A stretch of DNA of 64,000 nt, from the NCBI GenBank assembly GCA_951812575.1, contig OX638322.1:1237925-1301924 (forward strand). The letters are read 5' to 3'. Each line of letters starts with the position of its first letter. Positions within the stretch are counted from its first letter, which is position 1. The notes under the pieces are model-generated. The model worked only from the letters and a program-made list of their open reading frames with translations, was not told the DNA's origin and did no database searches. The DNA is from Candidatus Binatia bacterium. GTDB lineage: Bacteria; Desulfobacterota; Binatia; Bin18. The translations under genes and the position numbers were made by a program. Below are positions 5,327-59,681 of this stretch, in pieces.

Positions 5327-5592
5327 GGCGCTCCCCGGCCGGCGCCGGCGGGGGGCGAGGCGTGCCATGCGCTGAGCCCCTTGACGGTCCCGGCGCTGCC
5401 ACCCCACCGGCAATGCCACCCCAAACGGTCCGCCCACGCCGGACTGCCCGGCCTCCTGGTGACACCCCTGACCCTCCGCCTGTCCGTGGGCTCGGCCCAC
5501 CTCGGCCTCAGGAAGATACCCCCGTCGGAGCAGCCTCACTGCGCACCGGGGCGCGTCTCCCTTCTCCTCCTGCTGGTGGACACGTCTCCGGA

Positions 5593-8792: not shown

Positions 8793-10454
8793 ATGCTCGA
8801 ACGAATCTCGATCCTGTGCCTGAGCCTCGTGCTGGTGAGCGTCTGGGGCTGCTCGGCAACCCTCAGACGCCCCTCGGCCAAAGAATATTATCAGCAGGCA
8901 AGCGACTCTTTCACAGACGAGGACTATCTGGGAGCTTCCGATCAGTACCAGGAGTTGCTGGATCAATACCCACTCAACCCGTACGCTGAGGAAGCCCAGC
9001 TCAAAGCGGCCTATGGGCTGTTTATGGAAGAAAATTACGCCGAAGCCGTTGCGGCCTTTAAGGACTTTGAGCGGGCCTATCCGACCAGCAAGCATATGCC
9101 GTTTGTCAAATATTTTCTCGGTATTACGAATTATAGTCAGATTCGTTCCAAGGATCGTGACCAAGCCGTGACGCGCCGGGCGGACGGATTCTTTCAAGAG
9201 GTCATAGACCGATATCCGGAAAGTGCTTTCGTTCTCGAGGCTGAGGAAAAGAGCAAATCGGCGCGTGACATCCTGGCGGCCCACGAATTGATGGTGGCGA
9301 ACTTTAACGAAAAGCGCGACAATCTGACTGCCACAAAAGCCCGCCTGCGCAGCCTGATTGAGCAATACTCCGAAACGGATGCCACCGTGGAAGCCTTGGG
9401 TCGGCTCGAACAGATATTGAACGAAGAGGGTAACGTCGAGTTGGCCGAGCTGGCGGCCCGCGCTCAGTCTGCACGGAGAGCGGCCAGCCAGGCTCCCAGC
9501 GTGGAACCCCCCTTTTATTCCCCCCTATTAGGGGGGACACAGGGGGGTGAGGACGAGGTGACCGGCTCGGACGGTCTCCTCGTTGCCGGAGTCGATCCGT
9601 TATTGCTGCTCGTTTCCGAACTGAAAAAACAGGAGGAGGCAGAACGCCTGGCCCGGACGGAAGCGGATGCGGAAAGACTGGCAGCAGAAAAAGAGGCCGA
9701 GCAGGAGGAGCGGGCACTTGATGACGCCTTTGACGATGACCGCTCCTACGAAGTGGGTGACGATTATCGGGAAGTAGACTTGGAGGCCTTGGAAGCAGAG
9801 CGGGCCGCCCTGGAGACTCCCGACATTGAGGAGCTGGAATTCGACGTTGAGACAGACGATATCGGACCCTTGGAACTGACCGAGCAGGATGTAAAGAGGG
9901 AAGGTGTCCTTCCATCAGCCAGAGATGCTGGACACGTTTCCTCTTTCTCCGACGAGGACGATATTGATCTTTCTGACGATGACATCCTCACCCTTGACAT
10001 CGAGGACGACGCTATTGCGCTTGAGGAAGATGCTGAAGCCTTGGAAGCCGCTGGGGTGTTGGACGCTGAAGAAGAAGCTGGGGATGTCGTTGAAGAGATT
10101 GCTACAGTCGAGGACATGACTAGCGACGATGAGGTTGAAGGCGGCGCAGAGGTGGCCGAGGCAGAACCTGTCCTGAGCCCAGTCGAAGAGGAAGCCGAGG
10201 ACGACGAGGCAGTTATCGCAGTCGAGCAGAGTGAGCCGGTTGAGCTGGGTGAGTCAGAGGTTGAATACGCTGAAATAATAGATGAGGAGGCCGCCGCTTC
10301 CGACGTGCTCACGAACGGAGATGTCGCACTCAGCAAAAGAGGAAACGTTTCCTCCAATGATAGAGAGAGGCTGGAAACGTTCCCTCTTTCAGGACGGGAG
10401 GCCGTTCTGGGTATCGATATTGAGGAAATAGATTTCGAGTTTGAGGACGAATGA
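8793..10454 (+). CDS. bamD: BamD/YfiO-like outer-membrane assembly lipoprotein with ~330-aa acidic C-terminal extension
   Basis: Lipobox LVSVWGC. TPR-like N-terminal ~220 aa with the BamD-type pattern (YP.NPYAEEAQLK..Y, YPTSKH, RYPESAFV..A, AAHELMVANF). The remainder is D/E-rich low complexity. Confidence 0.65.
   Translation: MLERISILCLSLVLVSVWGCSATLRRPSAKEYYQQASDSFTDEDYLGASDQYQELLDQYPLNPYAEEAQLKAAYGLFMEENYAEAVAAFKDFERAYPTSKHMPFVKYFLGITNYSQIRSKDRDQAVTRRADGFFQEVIDRYPESAFVLEAEEKSKSARDILAAHELMVANFNEKRDNLTATKARLRSLIEQYSETDATVEALGRLEQILNEEGNVELAELAARAQSARRAASQAPSVEPPFYSPLLGGTQGGEDEVTGSDGLLVAGVDPLLLLVSELKKQEEAERLARTEADAERLAAEKEAEQEERALDDAFDDDRSYEVGDDYREVDLEALEAERAALETPDIEELEFDVETDDIGPLELTEQDVKREGVLPSARDAGHVSSFSDEDDIDLSDDDILTLDIEDDAIALEEDAEALEAAGVLDAEEEAGDVVEEIATVEDMTSDDEVEGGAEVAEAEPVLSPVEEEAEDDEAVIAVEQSEPVELGESEVEYAEIIDEEAAASDVLTNGDVALSKRGNVSSNDRERLETFPLSGREAVLGIDIEEIDFEFEDE
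9893..9947. repeat. ~55-bp palindromic interspersed element, copy b (inside the bamD-like CDS)
   Basis: AAAGAGGGAAGGTGTCCTTCC-loop-GGACACGTTTCCTCTTTC. Translated in frame as VKREGVLPSARDAGHVSSFS. Confidence 0.75.
10335..10390. repeat. ~55-bp palindromic interspersed element, copy a (inside the bamD-like CDS)
   Basis: AAAAGAGGAAACGTTTCCTCC-loop-GGAAACGTTCCCTCTTTC. Translated as KRGNVSSNDRERLETFPLS. Confidence 0.8.
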
Positions 10455-10488
10455 GACCTGTCGCCTGGGCAAAGAGTGAGCGTCGCCG

Positions 10489-10521
10489 AGCCTCTTTCCT
10501 CTTGGGAAGAGGCTTTTTATT
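10489..10521 (+). terminator. Rho-independent terminator after the bamD-like gene
   Basis: AGCCTCTT (10489-10496), a 10-nt loop, AAGAGGCT (10507-10514), followed by TTTTATT. Confidence 0.7.
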
Positions 10522-10542
10522 CTATTGGAAAAATAAGACAGC

Positions 10543-11307
10543 ATGAAACACGCCGCAGCCCCTGTTCCAAAGAGCGTCCGTGAGGGAAAAGTCCTGGTGG
10601 TCGGCGTCGGCGGCCTGGGCTCTCCGGCGGCATTGGCGCTCGCCCTGGCCGGGGTGGGAACGATTGGTCTGGTGGATTCGGACCGGGTCGAGCTGTCAAA
10701 CTTGCAACGGCAAATCCTGCACCTTACCCCGGATATTGGAAAGCCAAAGGTCGATTCGGCCAAGGAAAAAATTCAGCAACTCAACCCCGCGATAACAGTG
10801 GTGACCTATAACGAGTGGCTGCATGCGGCTAATCTCGCAGATATCTTTGCCGGCTATGATTTTATTATTGACGGGACGGACGGCGTGGCCACAAAGTTTC
10901 TGATCAATGACGGTGCCGTGCTGCTCAACAAACCACTCTCTCACGCTGGCATTGTCCAATTTCACGGTCAGGCATTGACGGTCTTACCCCATCGGACGAC
11001 GTGTTTGCGTTGCCTGTTCCCGGTCCCGCCTCATCCTGATGAGAATCCCACCTGCCAGGAGGCCGGCATCCTTGGCAGCCTGGCCGGCAGTCTGGGCGGC
11101 GTGCAGGCTGCCGAGGCTGTGAAATACCTGAGCGGAGCGGGGGAACTCCTGACCGACCGCTTACTGACCTATGACGCCCTGGCCTTACGCTGGCGAGAGG
11201 TCCGGGTGCGCCCCAGCCCGCACTGTCCGCTGTGCGGCACGCCGCGGACGATTACGGGCTTACAGCCCGAAGCCTATGAGTTGGAAAGACTCTGCACTCC
11301 TGTCTGA
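10543..11307 (+). CDS. ThiF/MoeB/HesA-family E1-like adenylyltransferase (intact)
   Basis: VLVVGVGGLGSPAALALALAGVGTIGLVDSDRVELSNLQRQILH (GxGxxG plus SNLxRQ). Two CxxC pairs (CLRC, CPLC). No rhodanese domain. Confidence 0.85.
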   Translation: MKHAAAPVPKSVREGKVLVVGVGGLGSPAALALALAGVGTIGLVDSDRVELSNLQRQILHLTPDIGKPKVDSAKEKIQQLNPAITVVTYNEWLHAANLADIFAGYDFIIDGTDGVATKFLINDGAVLLNKPLSHAGIVQFHGQALTVLPHRTTCLRCLFPVPPHPDENPTCQEAGILGSLAGSLGGVQAAEAVKYLSGAGELLTDRLLTYDALALRWREVRVRPSPHCPLCGTPRTITGLQPEAYELERLCTPV

Positions 11308-11405
11308 ATGAAAATCGGGCAGGGTGATTGTCAGACCGGCGCAAAAACGTAACAGTAGAAGCGCGAAAGAGTAGATGAGTGATTCTGAATCAGGAGGGAG
11401 TGCAT

Positions 11406-11717
11406 ATGAGTGCTCAGGTCCGTATCCCAACCCCGCTACGCCGCTTTACCGGCGGTGCGGAAGCAGTCTCGGCCGATGGAGCCACGGTTGGGGCCTTGGT
11501 CGATAGTATAGAGAGTAATCATCCTGGGATTAAGGAACGGTTGTGTGACGAGGCGGGCGAAGTCCGTCGCTTTGTCAATATCTTTGTAAATGGTGAAGAC
11601 ATTCGTTTTATCAACAATCTGGATACGCCGGTGAATGAGGGCGACGAAGTGTCTATCGTGCCTGCTATTGCCGGAGGCTCTTTTTGCCCCCGTCTCGCTA
11701 CGCTCGGCACCCCCTAG
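11406..11717 (+). CDS. MoaD/ThiS/CysO-type sulfur-carrier protein with a 12-residue extension after the GG motif
   Basis: ATG 11406 is preceded by AGGAGGGAG. The ~90-aa beta-grasp-like sequence ends ...GDEVSIVPAIAGG, followed by SFCPRLATLGTP and a stop. Confidence 0.7.
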   Translation: MSAQVRIPTPLRRFTGGAEAVSADGATVGALVDSIESNHPGIKERLCDEAGEVRRFVNIFVNGEDIRFINNLDTPVNEGDEVSIVPAIAGGSFCPRLATLGTP

Positions 11718-11737
11718 AGAAAAAAGGGGGGTAAAGC

Positions 11738-12799
11738 GTGTCACTCCTGCCGAAAAGAGTCAACGTGTCCTCCCAGGATAGAGAAGAGATGCTGGATACA
11801 TTTACTCTTTTTCCGACTGAGGGACCGCCGCCAGTCGGCCCCTTGCGTGTTCCGTCGGTTCTGCATCTGATTGGGAATACGCCGCTGCTTGAAATCACCC
11901 GGCTGAGTACGGACATTCCTCCAGGCGTCCGGGTCTATGCCAAACTCGAAGGTTTTAATCCCGGTGGATCGGTCAAAGATCGCCCCGCGCTGTGCATGCT
12001 CCAAAAAGGGATTGAGAGCGGCGCGCTGACCCCGGACAAGATTATTCTCGATTCCACCTCCGGGAATACCGGGATTGCGCTGGCCCTGATCGGAGCCGTG
12101 CTAGGCTACCCGGTCGAGCTGTGTATCCCGGCCAACGTCAGTATAGAGCGAAAAAAAATCATCTCCGCGTACGGGGCAAGAATGATTTTCAGCAGTCCCA
12201 TGGACGGCTCGGATGGCGCCTTGGAGCTATGTCGGGAGCGGCTGCAAGAGCGTCCCGAGCGCTATTTCAAACCGGATCAATACTTTAATCCACACAACTC
12301 GCTGGCTCACTACCAGACAACCGGGCCGGAGTTGTGGTGGCAGACCAAAGAGCAGATCACCCACTTTGTGGCCGGCATGGGCACCGGCGGCACCTTGATG
12401 GGAACCGGGCGCTATCTGAAGGAGAAAAACGCGGACATTCAGATTGTTGGGGTTGAACCGGATGATGCCTTTCACGGCCTTGAGGGGCTGAAGCATATGG
12501 ACAGTTCCATTGTGCCCGGCATCTACCATGAGGAGCAGCTTGACCGAAAGATCAGTGTTTCCACTGAAGACGCCTATGAAACGGTGTACCGGCTTGGTCG
12601 TAAAGAAGGGGTTTTGGTTGGCCAGTCATCCGGCGCGGCGATGTGGGCGGCACTCCAGGTGGCCCGTGAGATCAAGCAGGGAATAGTGGTGACGCTCTTC
12701 CCGGATTTTGGAGACAAATATCTCAGCACCAATCTGTGGATCGGCTGGAAAGAGTATAATCAGCGGCAAGCCCACACTCAGGCACAGGGAGCAGCGTGA
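11738..12799 (+). CDS. cysM: PLP-dependent cysteine synthase (CysK/CysM family)
   Basis: LIGNTPLLEI...KLEGFNPGGSVKDRPA...DSTSGNTGIALA, the typical PALP/CysM pattern. The start is uncertain: GTG 11738 or ATG 11789, which lies inside palindromic element copy c. Confidence 0.85.
   Translation: MSLLPKRVNVSSQDREEMLDTFTLFPTEGPPPVGPLRVPSVLHLIGNTPLLEITRLSTDIPPGVRVYAKLEGFNPGGSVKDRPALCMLQKGIESGALTPDKIILDSTSGNTGIALALIGAVLGYPVELCIPANVSIERKKIISAYGARMIFSSPMDGSDGALELCRERLQERPERYFKPDQYFNPHNSLAHYQTTGPELWWQTKEQITHFVAGMGTGGTLMGTGRYLKEKNADIQIVGVEPDDAFHGLEGLKHMDSSIVPGIYHEEQLDRKISVSTEDAYETVYRLGRKEGVLVGQSSGAAMWAALQVAREIKQGIVVTLFPDFGDKYLSTNLWIGWKEYNQRQAHTQAQGAA
11753..11812. repeat. ~55-bp palindromic interspersed element, copy c (degenerate; 5-prime end of cysM)
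   Basis: AAAAGAGTCAACGTGTCCTCC-loop-GGATACATTTACTCTTTTT. Reads as KRVNVSSQDREEMLDTFTLF in the ORF frame. Confidence 0.65.
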
Positions 12800-51474: not shown

Positions 51475-52008
51475 ATGAAAAAAGAAGACCAGCAGTGTCA
51501 GATACGCCATTGGCGAAAAGAGGGAACGTATCCTTCCTCGACCGGCAGATGCGGGATACGTTCCCTCTTTGCAGGATTTACCCTCCTAGAAATCATGATC
51601 GCGCTCTCCATCCTGGCGGTCGGCCTGGTGGCCGTGCTGGAACTCTTTGCCGGCAGTCTCCGCCTCACCGGAAAAGCCTCCCACCGCACCCAGGCGGTCA
51701 TCCATGCCCAGAACGTTATGGGCGGGTTTTTTGCCCCGGATTTCCTGGAAGATGGGGAGGACAGCGGGGAGCTGCCGGATGGCTTTTTTTGGCGGGCACG
51801 GGTGCAGGAAATCTTTCCGGATGAAACCGAAGAGGAGGCCGCGGAAAGGGAAAACGATGCGCTGGGCGGGGGGTCGTCTCTGCTGCACATCAAGGAGATA
51901 ACGGTCAGCGTCGGCTGGGAGGAGGGGGACAGCCACCGGAGTTTCGAGCTGCGTTCCATGCGCCTCATGTACGAAGAGCCCGATAGCCTCGAAGAGGGGG
52001 AAGGATAA
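51475..52008 (+). CDS. gspI: GspI-like minor pseudopilin with an unusually long leader
   Basis: G-FTLLEIMIALSILAVGLVAV preceded by ~50 residues that include palindromic element copy d. No in-frame start lies closer to the cleavage motif. Confidence 0.55.
   Translation: MKKEDQQCQIRHWRKEGTYPSSTGRCGIRSLFAGFTLLEIMIALSILAVGLVAVLELFAGSLRLTGKASHRTQAVIHAQNVMGGFFAPDFLEDGEDSGELPDGFFWRARVQEIFPDETEEEAAERENDALGGGSSLLHIKEITVSVGWEEGDSHRSFELRSMRLMYEEPDSLEEGEG
51516..51570. repeat. ~55-bp palindromic interspersed element, copy d (best-preserved arms)
   Basis: AAAGAGGGAACGTATCC-loop-GGATACGTTCCCTCTTT, with perfect 17-bp arms. Read as KEGTYPSSTGRCGIRSLF. Confidence 0.85.
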
Positions 52009-52699: not shown

Positions 52700-53761
52700 A
52701 TGAAGAGTACACGTGTCCTCCAATCAGACAAAAAAGCTGAACGCGTTTACTCTGTGCGGAACGAGCGCGGCGTTATCCTGATTGTGGTCGTGTGGGCGCT
52801 GATGGTGCTCATGGTTGTGGCGATTGAGCTTGGCCGCACCGCCCGGGTGGAGGGGTTGAGTACCGATGTCTACCAACAGGAGGTCAAAACCTATTATTTA
52901 GCCGTAGCCGGACTGAACCGCGTCCTCTACCAGCTCATCCGAACGAGCCAGCAGGGCCGCACGCGCAATCTCCAAGACGAAGATCGGCTGGGCCCACGCG
53001 ACCGGCTGAGCGAGAATGATCCAGAGGAATGCCCGGACCTCTGGCTGCTCGGTGATGGCCAATGGAGAGACGAAGCGTATGGCGAGGGCGGGTATCAGGT
53101 TCGGGTCAGTGACGAGAGCGGCAAAATCAATATCAACCAGGCGGATGAGATTATTTTACGGCAAACCTTTACCAATCTGGACTTTGATCCGGACTTTGGG
53201 GATGCCCTGGCCGATGCGATCCTCGACTGGCGTGACCCGGACCCCTTGGAGCGGCTGAATGGGGTTGAGAGTGATTACTATCTGGCCCAGGACATTGCCT
53301 ACCCGGCCAAGGACGGACCGCTCGACACGATTGATGAGCTGCTGTTGATCCGTGATGTCAGCCAGGATCTCTTCTACAACACCCTGAACGAGGTGTTCAC
53401 GGTGTATGGCAATGCGCGCAGCGGCAATATGGCCAACACCCAAACCGCAAACGCCCTCGTGCTCCGGGCCATACAGGGAGTTGATGCGGAAACCGCGGAG
53501 GAAACGATCCGGCAAAGGCGCGAAAACTGCGGGGAAGAGTTCCTGGACGCGACCGCAGCACGGGGGGGACTGCCCACGATTGTCACTATAGAAAGCGTCG
53601 GCTATCTGAACACCGGACGCATCACCCGCCGGCTGGCCGGCGTGATTGACCGCACGGGAGGCCAGTCCCATCGGGTGCTGCGCTGGCATGACCGTCTGCC
53701 TTCGCAGGCCCTCCCGCTCAGAAAAGACGACTTTGAGGACGAGGAAGAGGGGTGGTTCTGA
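52700..53761 (+). CDS. gspK: GspK-like minor pseudopilin
   Basis: Start taken at MKSTRVL. The helix GVILIVVVWALMVLMVVAIEL lacks the G-F-T-L-E site, as is usual for GspK. ININ.A....L and the ~350-aa size fit. Confidence 0.55.
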   Translation: MKSTRVLQSDKKAERVYSVRNERGVILIVVVWALMVLMVVAIELGRTARVEGLSTDVYQQEVKTYYLAVAGLNRVLYQLIRTSQQGRTRNLQDEDRLGPRDRLSENDPEECPDLWLLGDGQWRDEAYGEGGYQVRVSDESGKININQADEIILRQTFTNLDFDPDFGDALADAILDWRDPDPLERLNGVESDYYLAQDIAYPAKDGPLDTIDELLLIRDVSQDLFYNTLNEVFTVYGNARSGNMANTQTANALVLRAIQGVDAETAEETIRQRRENCGEEFLDATAARGGLPTIVTIESVGYLNTGRITRRLAGVIDRTGGQSHRVLRWHDRLPSQALPLRKDDFEDEEEGWF

Positions 53762-57592: not shown

Positions 57593-59311
57593 TCAGAAGA
57601 GAAAATAGCGTTGGGCGAGGGGCAGGACCTGGGCCGGTTCACAGGTGAGTATTTCACCGTCGGCTTTCACGACGTAGGTCTCCGGGTTGACCTCTATGTC
57701 CGGCAGGGCCTGATTGTGGACCAGGTCTTTTTTTCCGACACTCCGACAGCCCTGGACCGGGACGAGCGGCTTCTGGAGCCGTAAGCGCTGGCCCAGGCCG
57801 TTTTCGTAGGCGGCGCGCGAGACAAAACTCACGGACAGCGAGGCCGGGGCCCGCCCCAGGTGGCCAAACATCGGCCGTCCGAACACCGGTTGGGGGGTCG
57901 GAATGGAGGCGTTGGGATCACCCATCGCCGCCCAGGCAATGAAGCCGCCCTTGAGAATCAGTTCCGGCTTGACGCCAAAAAACTTCGGCTCCCACACCAC
58001 CAAGTCGGCCAGCTTACCCACCTCAATCGATCCCACCTGCTGGGCGATACCGTGGGTCAGGGCCGGGTTGATGGTGTATTTGGCAATATAACGCTTGACC
58101 CGAAAATTATCGTTTTCCCCTGTCTCTTCCGGTAAGCGACCGCGTTGGACTCGCATCTTATGGGCGGTCTGCCAGGTGCGGAGAATCACTTCCCCAACGC
58201 GGCCCATGGCCTGCGAGTCCGACGCCATCATACTGAAGGCACCCAGATCGTGCAGCACGTCCTCGGCCGCAATCGTTTCCGGTCGAATACGCGATTCGGC
58301 AAAGGCCACGTCTTCGGGAACACCGGGGTCCAGATGGTGGCAGACCATCAGCATGTCGAGGTGTTCGTCTATGGTGTTGACAGTGAAGGGCCGGGTCGGG
58401 TTGGTTGACGACGGCAGGACGTTCGGGAACCCGCACACCTTGATGATATCCGGCGCATGTCCCCCGCCTGCTCCCTCGGTATGGTAGGTGTGGATCGCGC
58501 GGCCCTTAAACGCCGCAATCGTATCCTCGACATAGCCGGTTTCGTTTAAGGTATCGGTGTGGATGGCGACCTGGACGTCATAGTCGTCGGCCACGGAGAG
58601 CGCACAATCAATCGCGGCAGGCGTCGAGCCCCAGTCTTCGTGGAGTTTGAGCCCCATGGCACCGGCTTCGAGCTGCTCGCGTAGGGCCTCGGGACGAGAG
58701 GCATTGCCCTTGCCCAGAAAACCCAGATTCATGGGAAAGTCCTCGATCGATTCGAGCATACGGGCGATGTTCCACGGCCCCGGTGTACAGGTGGTCGCGT
58801 TGGTGCCGGTGGCCGGGCCAGTCCCACCGCCAAACATCGTGGTGATGCCCGACGCCAGCGCTTCGGTGATCTGTTGGGGACAGATAAAATGAATATGCGC
58901 GTCAATACCACCCGCAGTCAGAATCTTCCCTTCTCCGGCCAGAATTTCCGTCCCAGGGCCAATGACCAGTTCGGGCGAGACGCCCTCCATCAGGAGGGGG
59001 TTACCGGCTTTACCGATGCCGCAAATTCGGCCGTCTTTCACCCCGACATCGGCTTTCACAATGCCCCAGTGGTCAATCACGGTCGCATTGGTAATCACCA
59101 GATCCGGCGCGCCTTGAACCGAGGTTTGGACGGGTGACTGGCCCATACCGTCGCGAATGACTTTGCCGCCACCGAACTTTACCTCATCCCCGAGTTGCGT
59201 ATGGTCCTGCTCGACCTCAATCACCAGGTCGGTATCGGCCAGCCGGACCCGGTCGCCAACGGTCGGCCCGAACATTTCGGCATACCGACGGTGTTCCATC
59301 GTTCGACTCAT
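57593..59311 (-). CDS. ureC: Urease alpha subunit
   Basis: [52 protein letters not shown] and MVCHHL. 572 aa, i.e. alpha only. Confidence 0.95.
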
Positions 59312-59328
59312 CCGTCCCTCCTCACCTC

Positions 59329-59379
59329 AAGAGGGAACGTGTCTTTCAATAGACTAAAGATGGACACGTTCCCTCTTTC
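59329..59379. repeat. ~55-bp palindromic interspersed element, copy e (fills the ureA-ureC spacer)
   Basis: AAGAGGGAACGTGTC-loop-GACACGTTCCCTCTTTC. Abuts the ureA stop codon. Confidence 0.85.
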
Positions 59380-59681
59380 TAGCGTATCGGCCGGTGGACG
59401 CTGACCAGCTTGGTCCCGTCTGGAAAGGTGGCCTCGACCTGCACCAGATCAATCATCTCGGCCACCCCGTCCATCACATCGTCCCGGCCAAGGATGGTCG
59501 CGCCGTACGACATGAGTTCCGACACGGATTGCCCGTCCCGAGCTCCTTCCAGCACCGCACTGGTAATCAGAGCCATGGCTTCGGGATAGTTCAGCTTCAA
59601 CCCGCGCGCCCGTCGTTCCCGGGCCAGTTGGGCGGCGAGATAGATCATCAGCTTCTCTTGTTCGTGCGGAGTAAAATGCAT
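59379..59681 (-). CDS. ureA: Urease gamma subunit
   Basis: [39 protein letters not shown]...[16 protein letters not shown]. 100 aa. Confidence 0.95.

Follow-up and report, generated by a model that had tools for sequence, protein, structure and literature searches.

The genome of a Candidatus Binatia bacterium carries many dispersed copies of a 54-bp palindromic repeat, six of them within the 64,000-nucleotide stretch analysed here (the window; positions 1,237,925-1,301,924 of a single 5.18 Mb contig of 58% G+C, genome G000). We consider it highly probable that this repeat is a non-autonomous selfish mobile element that is specific to one Candidatus Binatia clade and is translated when it lies in genes. 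The element would spread as a hairpin-forming unit, inserting almost anywhere without duplicating its target, and selection would keep the copies that do no harm. Such copies would lie between genes, often precisely at a stop codon in a tight operon junction; inside genes they would occupy the first or last few codons, leader or signal peptides that are cleaved off, disordered tails, and linkers between domains or loops. A copy inside a gene would be read through as 18 extra residues, since its length is divisible by three and several of its frames are open; in frame 1 the element's own TAA would end the gene after an added Lys-Glu, and the first base of the element or an ATG in its loop could serve in a start codon.

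A hairpin repeat with exact borders

A regular-expression search, followed by an nhmmer profile built from its matches, identified 148 matches at a cut-off of E<0.01 in the whole 5.18 Mb genome, or ∼144 unique copies after removal of four in duplicated contig ends. The majority consensus, AAAGAGTAAACGTGTCC-TCCAATAGACATGAGATGCT-GGACACGTTTACTCTTT, consists of two 17-bp stem arms separated by a 20-nt loop, which is asymmetric and occurs in both orientations. The motifs CCTCCA and GCTGG that flank the loop are conserved nearly as strongly as the stem. The modal length is 54 bp, and positions 1 and 54 are exact borders beyond which conservation is at background. TAA lies two codons in from either end of the element, on both strands. 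The copies in the window belong to a GGA/GAA variant of the consensus with the matching change in the opposite arm, and a 13-nt arm motif matched the window 12 times at ≤2 mismatches, compared with 1.47 matches expected and none of 100 shuffles reaching 12.

The stem shows compensatory changes. Across 68 distinct 54-nt copies, 93% of cells in the 17-bp stem were paired, compared with only 34-59% in controls with shifted register. Changes on both sides were found in 9 of the 17 stem pairs, a number that 0 of 500 shuffles reached (at pair 7:48, for instance, 43 copies have U-A and 20 have G-C), and none of five measures of covariation was matched by any shuffle. The hairpin first proposed from the window alone is borne out by structure prediction, since the consensus folds as single-stranded DNA with a free energy of −17 kcal/mol and a z-score of about −9. 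The many copy-specific compensatory changes argue that propagation depends on the hairpin, and the element presumably moves as a single-stranded hairpin through an enzyme acting in trans.

About half of the copies lie in 18% of the chromosome (G000:C1:0.9-1.85 Mb), a dense zone that includes the window and surrounds the putative origin, placed where cumulative GC skew reaches its minimum (∼1.08 Mb). The contig ends (29-101 kb and 5.085-5.161 Mb) are near-identical, including their four copies of the element, with offsets that differ by a few kb; they probably reflect either a circular chromosome whose assembly overlaps itself or a mixture of strains. Contamination of the assembly was estimated at 7.7%.

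Insertion into genes and at gene ends

The original prediction listed five copies in the window, four of them within coding sequence. All five exist within 1 nt of where they had been placed, the arms of copy d are a perfect 17 bp as described and the three peptide readings then given are correct. In contrast, a possible degenerate copy at ∼5548-5592 was not recovered by the profile at E<0.01, and a sixth copy (52702-52755) had been missed. Comparison with orthologues established that these four copies in coding sequence, and the sixth as well, are in-frame insertions (five of the six window copies), with exact 54-bp presence/absence at several sites, and that the copy between ureA and ureC is intergenic. 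The copies and their host genes are as follows.

8793-10454, + strand: BamD-like lipoprotein gene with a long acidic tail; host of copies a and b
9893-9946, + strand: copy a, in frame in the BamD-like acidic tail; predicted to encode (V)KREGVLPSARDAGHVSSF
10336-10389, + strand: copy b, in frame, 21 codons before the BamD-like stop; predicted to encode KRGNVSSNDRERLETFPL
11738-12799, + strand: cysM (cysteine synthase); GTG start at 11738 conserved across the genus
11754-11810, + strand: copy c, 57 bp, after codon 5 of cysM; loop ATG at 11789 in frame
51475-52008, + strand: GspI-like minor pseudopilin gene; ATG common to all species
51517-51570, + strand: copy d, in the GspI-like prepilin leader, two codons before the cleavage site between G and FTLLE
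52700-53761, + strand: GspK-like gene; start at 52700 set by orthologue comparison
52702-52755, + strand: sixth copy, within the GspK-like ATG (CCAT^GCGG); predicted to add 18 N-terminal residues (MKSTRVLQSDKKAERVYSV...)
59328-59378, − strand: copy e, intergenic; site empty in the relative G019

The BamD-like gene shows the precision of insertion most directly. Exactly 54 bp are present or absent at the site of copy a, between GATGT^CTCCG (5 genomes filled, 18 empty), and at that of copy b, between CAGAA^CAGGA, where three species carry the 18 codons and a fourth (L017) retains a 24-bp in-frame remnant. At both sites all other species lack exactly those 18 codons, no base is duplicated, and the conserved C-terminus GREAVLGIDIEEIDFEFEDE stays in frame downstream in every species. 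This gene has a third insertion site, at nt 761, where six other species carry the element and the window does not. The BamD-like protein has its relatives in metagenome-assembled genomes that bear the label Candidatus Binatia. Directly 3′ of the stop codon lies a terminator-like hairpin (10488-10520; GCCTCTT…AAGAGGC then TTTTTA), which supports the view that transcription of the gene extends through the acidic tail and both inserts.

Insertion also occurred at the very start of genes. The ancestral layout at cysM is ...GGA TAA AGC GTG TCA CTC CTG CCG..., with the GTG start directly after the upstream stop, and empty alleles in L011, L020, L023, L025 and L027 read GTGTCACTCCTGCCGA^GCCCA. In four relatives a deletion has removed the cysM GTG together with the left arm of the element, leaving the right half with its in-frame loop ATG, which is now the first ATG ahead of the conserved N-terminus. 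The idea that loop ATGs, including that of cysM at 11789, act as translation starts finds partial support: the loop ATG could serve as the start in these four relatives, and the start conserved across the genus is the GTG. The hairpin could, as originally suggested, also gate translation. In the GspK-like gene the insertion falls inside the start codon, the first base of the element being the G that retains the ATG; nine genomes have empty alleles (ATGCGGAACGAG), and a second, independent insertion inside a start codon, at 1,552,696, has the same arrangement. Copy d lengthens the GspI-like leader from 15 to 33 residues. Its site shows exact 54-bp presence/absence, with a 51-bp in-frame version in G019 and a 6-nt footprint in G003, and no in-frame start was found between copy d and the mature protein.

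Two copies illustrate the opposite end of genes. In four relatives a TAA-bearing copy in the GspH-like gene cuts off its last six codons, and copy e immediately follows the TAG that ends the upstream urease gene and precedes the ureC Shine-Dalgarno sequence, both genes being on the minus strand. In G019, which lacks copy e (region corresponding to window 59250-59460), the upstream urease gene likewise abuts ureC, its stop overlapping the ureC start. The element is therefore not the reason that no separate ureB lies between these two genes.

Next to copy c, the MoaD/CysO-like sulfur-carrier gene (11408-11717) contains an insertion of ∼64 nt (11668-11731) directly after its C-terminal Gly-Gly codons, adding a 12-residue extension, SFCPRLATLGTP, before the stop. 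In five relatives the sulfur carrier ends in GG-stop with the cysM GTG immediately next. We rejected this insertion as a second repeat family, its sequence being unique in the genome. A Gly-Gly sulfur carrier with a C-terminal extension would need proteolytic removal of that extension.

To place all copies relative to genes, we used a codon log-odds score trained on 449 long open reading frames (in 120-nt windows, in-frame median +15, off-frame −22), and then corrected the classes by hand with the help of a 0.8 Mb syntenic region of the low-copy relative G019. The resulting classes, of which the N-terminal one is the least certain, are as follows.

Internal to coding sequence: 15 of 144 unique copies
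N-terminal, orthologue-confirmed: 4 of 144
N-terminal, likely: 10 of 144
N-terminal, ambiguous: 11 of 144
Gene ends inside the element: 24 of 144
Intergenic: 80 of 144 (56%)

Thus ∼37% of the copies overlap coding sequence and ∼20% add residues in frame, a census that refutes an almost exclusively intergenic distribution of the kind that would have undone the original proposal. Lengths that are multiples of three were found for all 15 internal and all 4 verified N-terminal copies, compared with 58% of intergenic copies; one apparent 55-mer in coding sequence proved to be 54 bp on comparison with G019. Differences among orthologous coding copies also preserve the frame (51, 54, 57 and 63 bp, a 24-bp remnant and a net +3 footprint). 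Wherever the coding signal of the same gene flanks a copy on both sides, the copy is open in frame, the other two-sided cases being junctions of adjacent genes. A search for disrupted genes or bypass candidates among copies with same-gene flanks accordingly yielded none. All three frames and either strand of the element occur as coding sequence; the coding copies in frame 1 are all variants without the TAA, stop-free arm variants tend to be enriched among the presumably translated copies (p=0.06), and these copies favour one orientation (20 versus 7). Predicted element-host junction peptides are TEQDVKREGVLPSAR, FMEKKRERVLQQPENAGHVSSLTDGG (MetH) and MKSTRVLQSDKK (GspK-like).

These results bear on two alternatives to a translated mobile element. 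One is that the coding copies go untranslated, through mis-set frames, translational bypass or excision of the 54 nt as an intervening sequence. Our case for translation is drawn from sequence, and many copies combine a strong hairpin with a stop codon near the 5′ end, as do bypass elements such as T4 gene 60 and the mitochondrial byps. Skipping would need neither an open frame nor a length divisible by three, yet all coding copies and their later insertions and deletions keep the frame, and the coding copies in frame 1 all lack the TAA. Moreover, neither matching take-off and landing codons nor a direct repeat was found at the element ends, the GspI-like gene offers no alternative start, and the BamD-like C-terminus is conserved in frame after both inserts. 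We regard untranslated copies as very unlikely. The other alternative is a repeated peptide-coding module, that is, a protein motif spread by duplication or recombination and not a mobile element at the DNA level, as might be suggested by the similar 18-residue segments in several hosts (e.g., KSKRVLQ...AGHVYSS). The census effectively refutes this idea and leaves it a negligible chance: one DNA sequence serves in all three frames and on either strand, the majority of copies lie outside coding sequence, and conservation is at the level of nucleotides and stem pairing within sharp 54-bp borders. It is likewise hard to reconcile ∼144 dispersed and mostly non-coding copies with empty alleles that arose by secondary deletion of an ancestral coding segment.

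The proteins that contain internal copies, named from sequence motifs and, for MetH, Lnt and the kinase, also from matches to solved structures, include MetH (methionine synthase), Lnt (apolipoprotein N-acyltransferase, with two inserts), a RimO/MiaB-like enzyme, an aminoglycoside-phosphotransferase (APH)-like kinase, a vWA protein, a TonB-dependent receptor, MltA, an acyl-CoA dehydrogenase, an ArnT-like transferase, a HEAT-repeat protein and a geranylgeranyl-reductase-like flavoprotein. In the solved homologue of MetH the insert is matched by a clean 19-residue gap, located in the linker that joins the cap to the B12-binding domain; for the APH-like kinase the corresponding gap has 20 residues, with the HGD catalytic loop on one side and the DWE motif on the other. 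The second insert in Lnt also faces gaps in its solved homologue, in a less clean alignment. Other coding copies lie in a prepilin leader, in signal-peptide n-regions and in a disordered acidic tail. Alignment to solved homologues thus suggests that the insertions fall at permissive (surface or linker) positions of their hosts.

Many copies are found where genes end. Of 102 gene 3′ ends that face an element, 18 stop at the element's own TAA (positions 7-9), giving ...Lys-Glu-stop, and another 17 have their stop codon ≤4 nt from the element edge, with several stops split by it (T^AG, TG^A); further upstream, stop density is ∼1 per nt or less. Where the frame can be read past the element, the native stop lies 0-5 codons downstream. 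Gene-end copies for which empty alleles are available occupy mostly tight operon junctions (stop, Shine-Dalgarno sequence, start). Since the stop codon would be the only harmless place in so tight a spacer, selection is the simplest reading of the gene-end copies, and we infer that selection, rather than targeting, has shaped the distribution as a whole. A copy 6.5 kb past the window (G000:C1:1308379-1308429) fits exactly between the start codon of a reverse-strand gene (CAT) and a tRNA gene, at the latter's first base; apart from lacking the element, G019 is identical there.

A rival view is that the element is a REP-type regulatory hairpin that serves the host through 3′-end mRNA stability, cistron separation, translational coupling or protein binding, its in-gene copies being merely tolerated. 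The intergenic majority of copies, the many that sit exactly at a stop and before the Shine-Dalgarno sequence of the next gene at operon junctions, the strong stem covariation and the conservation of CCTCCA and GCTGG beside the loop all favour such a role. Against it, no T-tract follows the stem, so that the element is not an intrinsic terminator, and no Rfam 15 family matched the elements in window 9000-12500. In addition, orthologous copies decay in place through one-sided stem changes and internal deletions, presence at a site varies freely among close species, and the 54-bp unit is read in three frames inside essential genes. A host-serving function is therefore an improbable primary explanation.

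Distribution, turnover and the means of movement

The element is restricted to one genus-level clade of Candidatus Binatia. The strict two-arm pattern was present in 16 of 25 genomes of the same genus and in none of 16 genomes of other genera in the class. An exact 17-mer scan of ∼185,000 species genomes returned, among the matches listed, essentially only these Binatia genomes and two isolated single-arm chance matches. Binatota are listed in the literature among sponge symbionts.

Within this clade, clean presence/absence was observed in the BamD-like gene (three sites) and in the GspI, GspK, cysM and GspH genes. Removing exactly the element restored gap-free colinearity with G019 in 20 of 37 comparisons, which indicates that no target is duplicated. 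No target motif was apparent: the flank logo did not exceed 0.3 bits and nothing was common to the 20 clean empty sites. Five sites in one 5.5-kb region each require 3-5 presence/absence changes on the local tree of 23 species, one 51-bp allele is common to non-sister species, and sister genomes differ by clean empty sites. The number of changes per site, together with the clean empty sites in sisters, indicates that precise loss and/or recombination with empty alleles is frequent. Copies also decay by internal deletion, leaving footprints, and the 10 solo arms in the genome resemble truncated copies in the cases inspected.

At two sites the loop is reverse-complemented between species while the arms and flanks are unmoved (L008/L009 at BamD nt 761 and L034/L043 at the 3′ end of the GspH-like gene), which points to inversion of the loop in place between the 17-bp arms. 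Because of such inversion, orientation is not a stable marker, and the weak replichore strand bias of the copies (p=0.03) is uninformative about single-strand transposition.

A mobiliser of the RAYT/IS200 type was considered and rejected, in that matches to PF01797 (Y1) do not track the element across the 25 genus genomes; Y1 matches are absent from G004, G006, G010, G011 and G015, all of which carry 17-25 strict copies. The single RAYT-like gene of G000 (G000:C1:3104200-3105350) has tandem arrays of a different hairpin repeat, GGGAGCGCGGGCATCTTGCCCGC, on both sides. Such a layout is classical for REP/RAYT and has no connection with the 54-bp element.

Several points weigh against a selfish element that is translated in genes and distributed by selection. 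The analysis yielded no mobilising enzyme, co-occurrence of Y1/RAYT genes with the element was not seen in the genus genomes, and neither G000 nor 80 loci from relatives contained an arm pair enclosing a transposase or gene, as a full-length parent element would. Gene calls outside the window come from our in-house codon-usage score and not from a validated gene finder, and translation of the coding copies is deduced from their open frames. Real targeting, and not selection, may account for the clustering at start and stop codons, and the patchy presence among species could reflect interspecies recombination, precise excision or repeated insertion.

In a bolder scheme, which we consider doubtful, undescribed hairpin-specific machinery inserts and excises the element precisely, without target duplication and with almost no target preference, and the architecture of the element has been shaped to be harmless in coding DNA. 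The traits so shaped may include the length of exactly 18 codons, the TAA near both ends, the loop ATG and the stop-free variant arms. Homoplastic presence, clean empty sites and the excess at starts and stops fit this scheme without proving it. If it were true, a “coding-compatible” transposon would be remodelling the ends of proteins and the junctions of operons throughout a bacterial genus.

Comparison with known palindromic elements

We found no description of the 54-bp Binatia element in the literature searched. Like bypass elements, it is a short hairpin that enters coding regions. In the yeast mitochondrial byps and T4 gene 60 the ribosome skips the element, so that an open frame is unnecessary, whereas the frames here are strictly preserved, which argues for read-through translation and against bypass. 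REP and REPIN sequences are likewise hairpin repeats with hundreds of copies, stem covariation and restriction to one lineage, but the Binatia element has no GTAG head, is not restricted to extragenic sites and does not flank a cognate RAYT. With palindromes derived from IS200/IS605 it has in common the dependence on a hairpin and the lack of target duplication, and its clean empty sites are compatible with precise excision; those elements, however, have a pair of unlike subterminal hairpins and insert 3′ of a fixed target of four or five nucleotides, compared with one symmetric hairpin and no motif here.

Bacterial miniature inverted-repeat transposable elements (Correia/NEMIS, ERIC/IRU, QMITE and Nezha) are also small, non-autonomous and multi-copy, with terminal inverted repeats, and occasionally form in-frame fusions with host genes (PMC10969869). 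They differ from the Binatia element in that the latter shows no target-site duplication, has no parent insertion sequence with matching ends that we could find and overlaps coding sequence in a much higher share of copies. Short hairpin elements that invade coding regions are known in addition from the organelles of Volvox (PMC2670323).

The closest parallel is the one drawn originally, to the Rickettsia palindromic elements (RPEs). RPE-1 to RPE-10 are palindromic repeats found in frame in genes (Ogata et al. 2000, 2002; summarised in PMC10969869). In both systems short palindromic selfish repeats have neither a gene of their own nor a known mobilising enzyme, and a large share of copies lies in frame at permissive places of unrelated housekeeping genes, with the rest intergenic. 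The in-frame insertions seen by orthologue comparison support this RPE-like behaviour, but the element is probably not a member of the Rickettsia RPE families. It is 54 bp long, a single simple hairpin of exactly 18 codons, compared with roughly 100-150 bp for RPEs; its hosts are Binatota with genomes of 4-6 Mb and not Alphaproteobacteria; and many of its copies are at gene termini, where they supply stops or sit in start codons. Judged from length and host, relatedness in sequence to RPEs appears implausible. Because its shorter length and different phylum set it apart from RPEs as described, we class the element as a new RPE-like family and not as an RPE.

In the literature consulted, in-frame palindromic repeats at such frequency have been described only for Rickettsia, with occurrence elsewhere suggested (PMC10969869). 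The Binatia element would provide an independent case in an unrelated phylum. For annotation, it means that start and stop codons in these genomes often come from a repeat. With ∼28 related genomes, many of them complete, that hold filled, empty, flipped and decayed alleles, the insertion and loss of such an element and its mobilising enzyme become approachable, as does the share that 18-residue insertions have had in the evolution of essential enzymes (MetH, Lnt and cysM) and secretion-system pilins.

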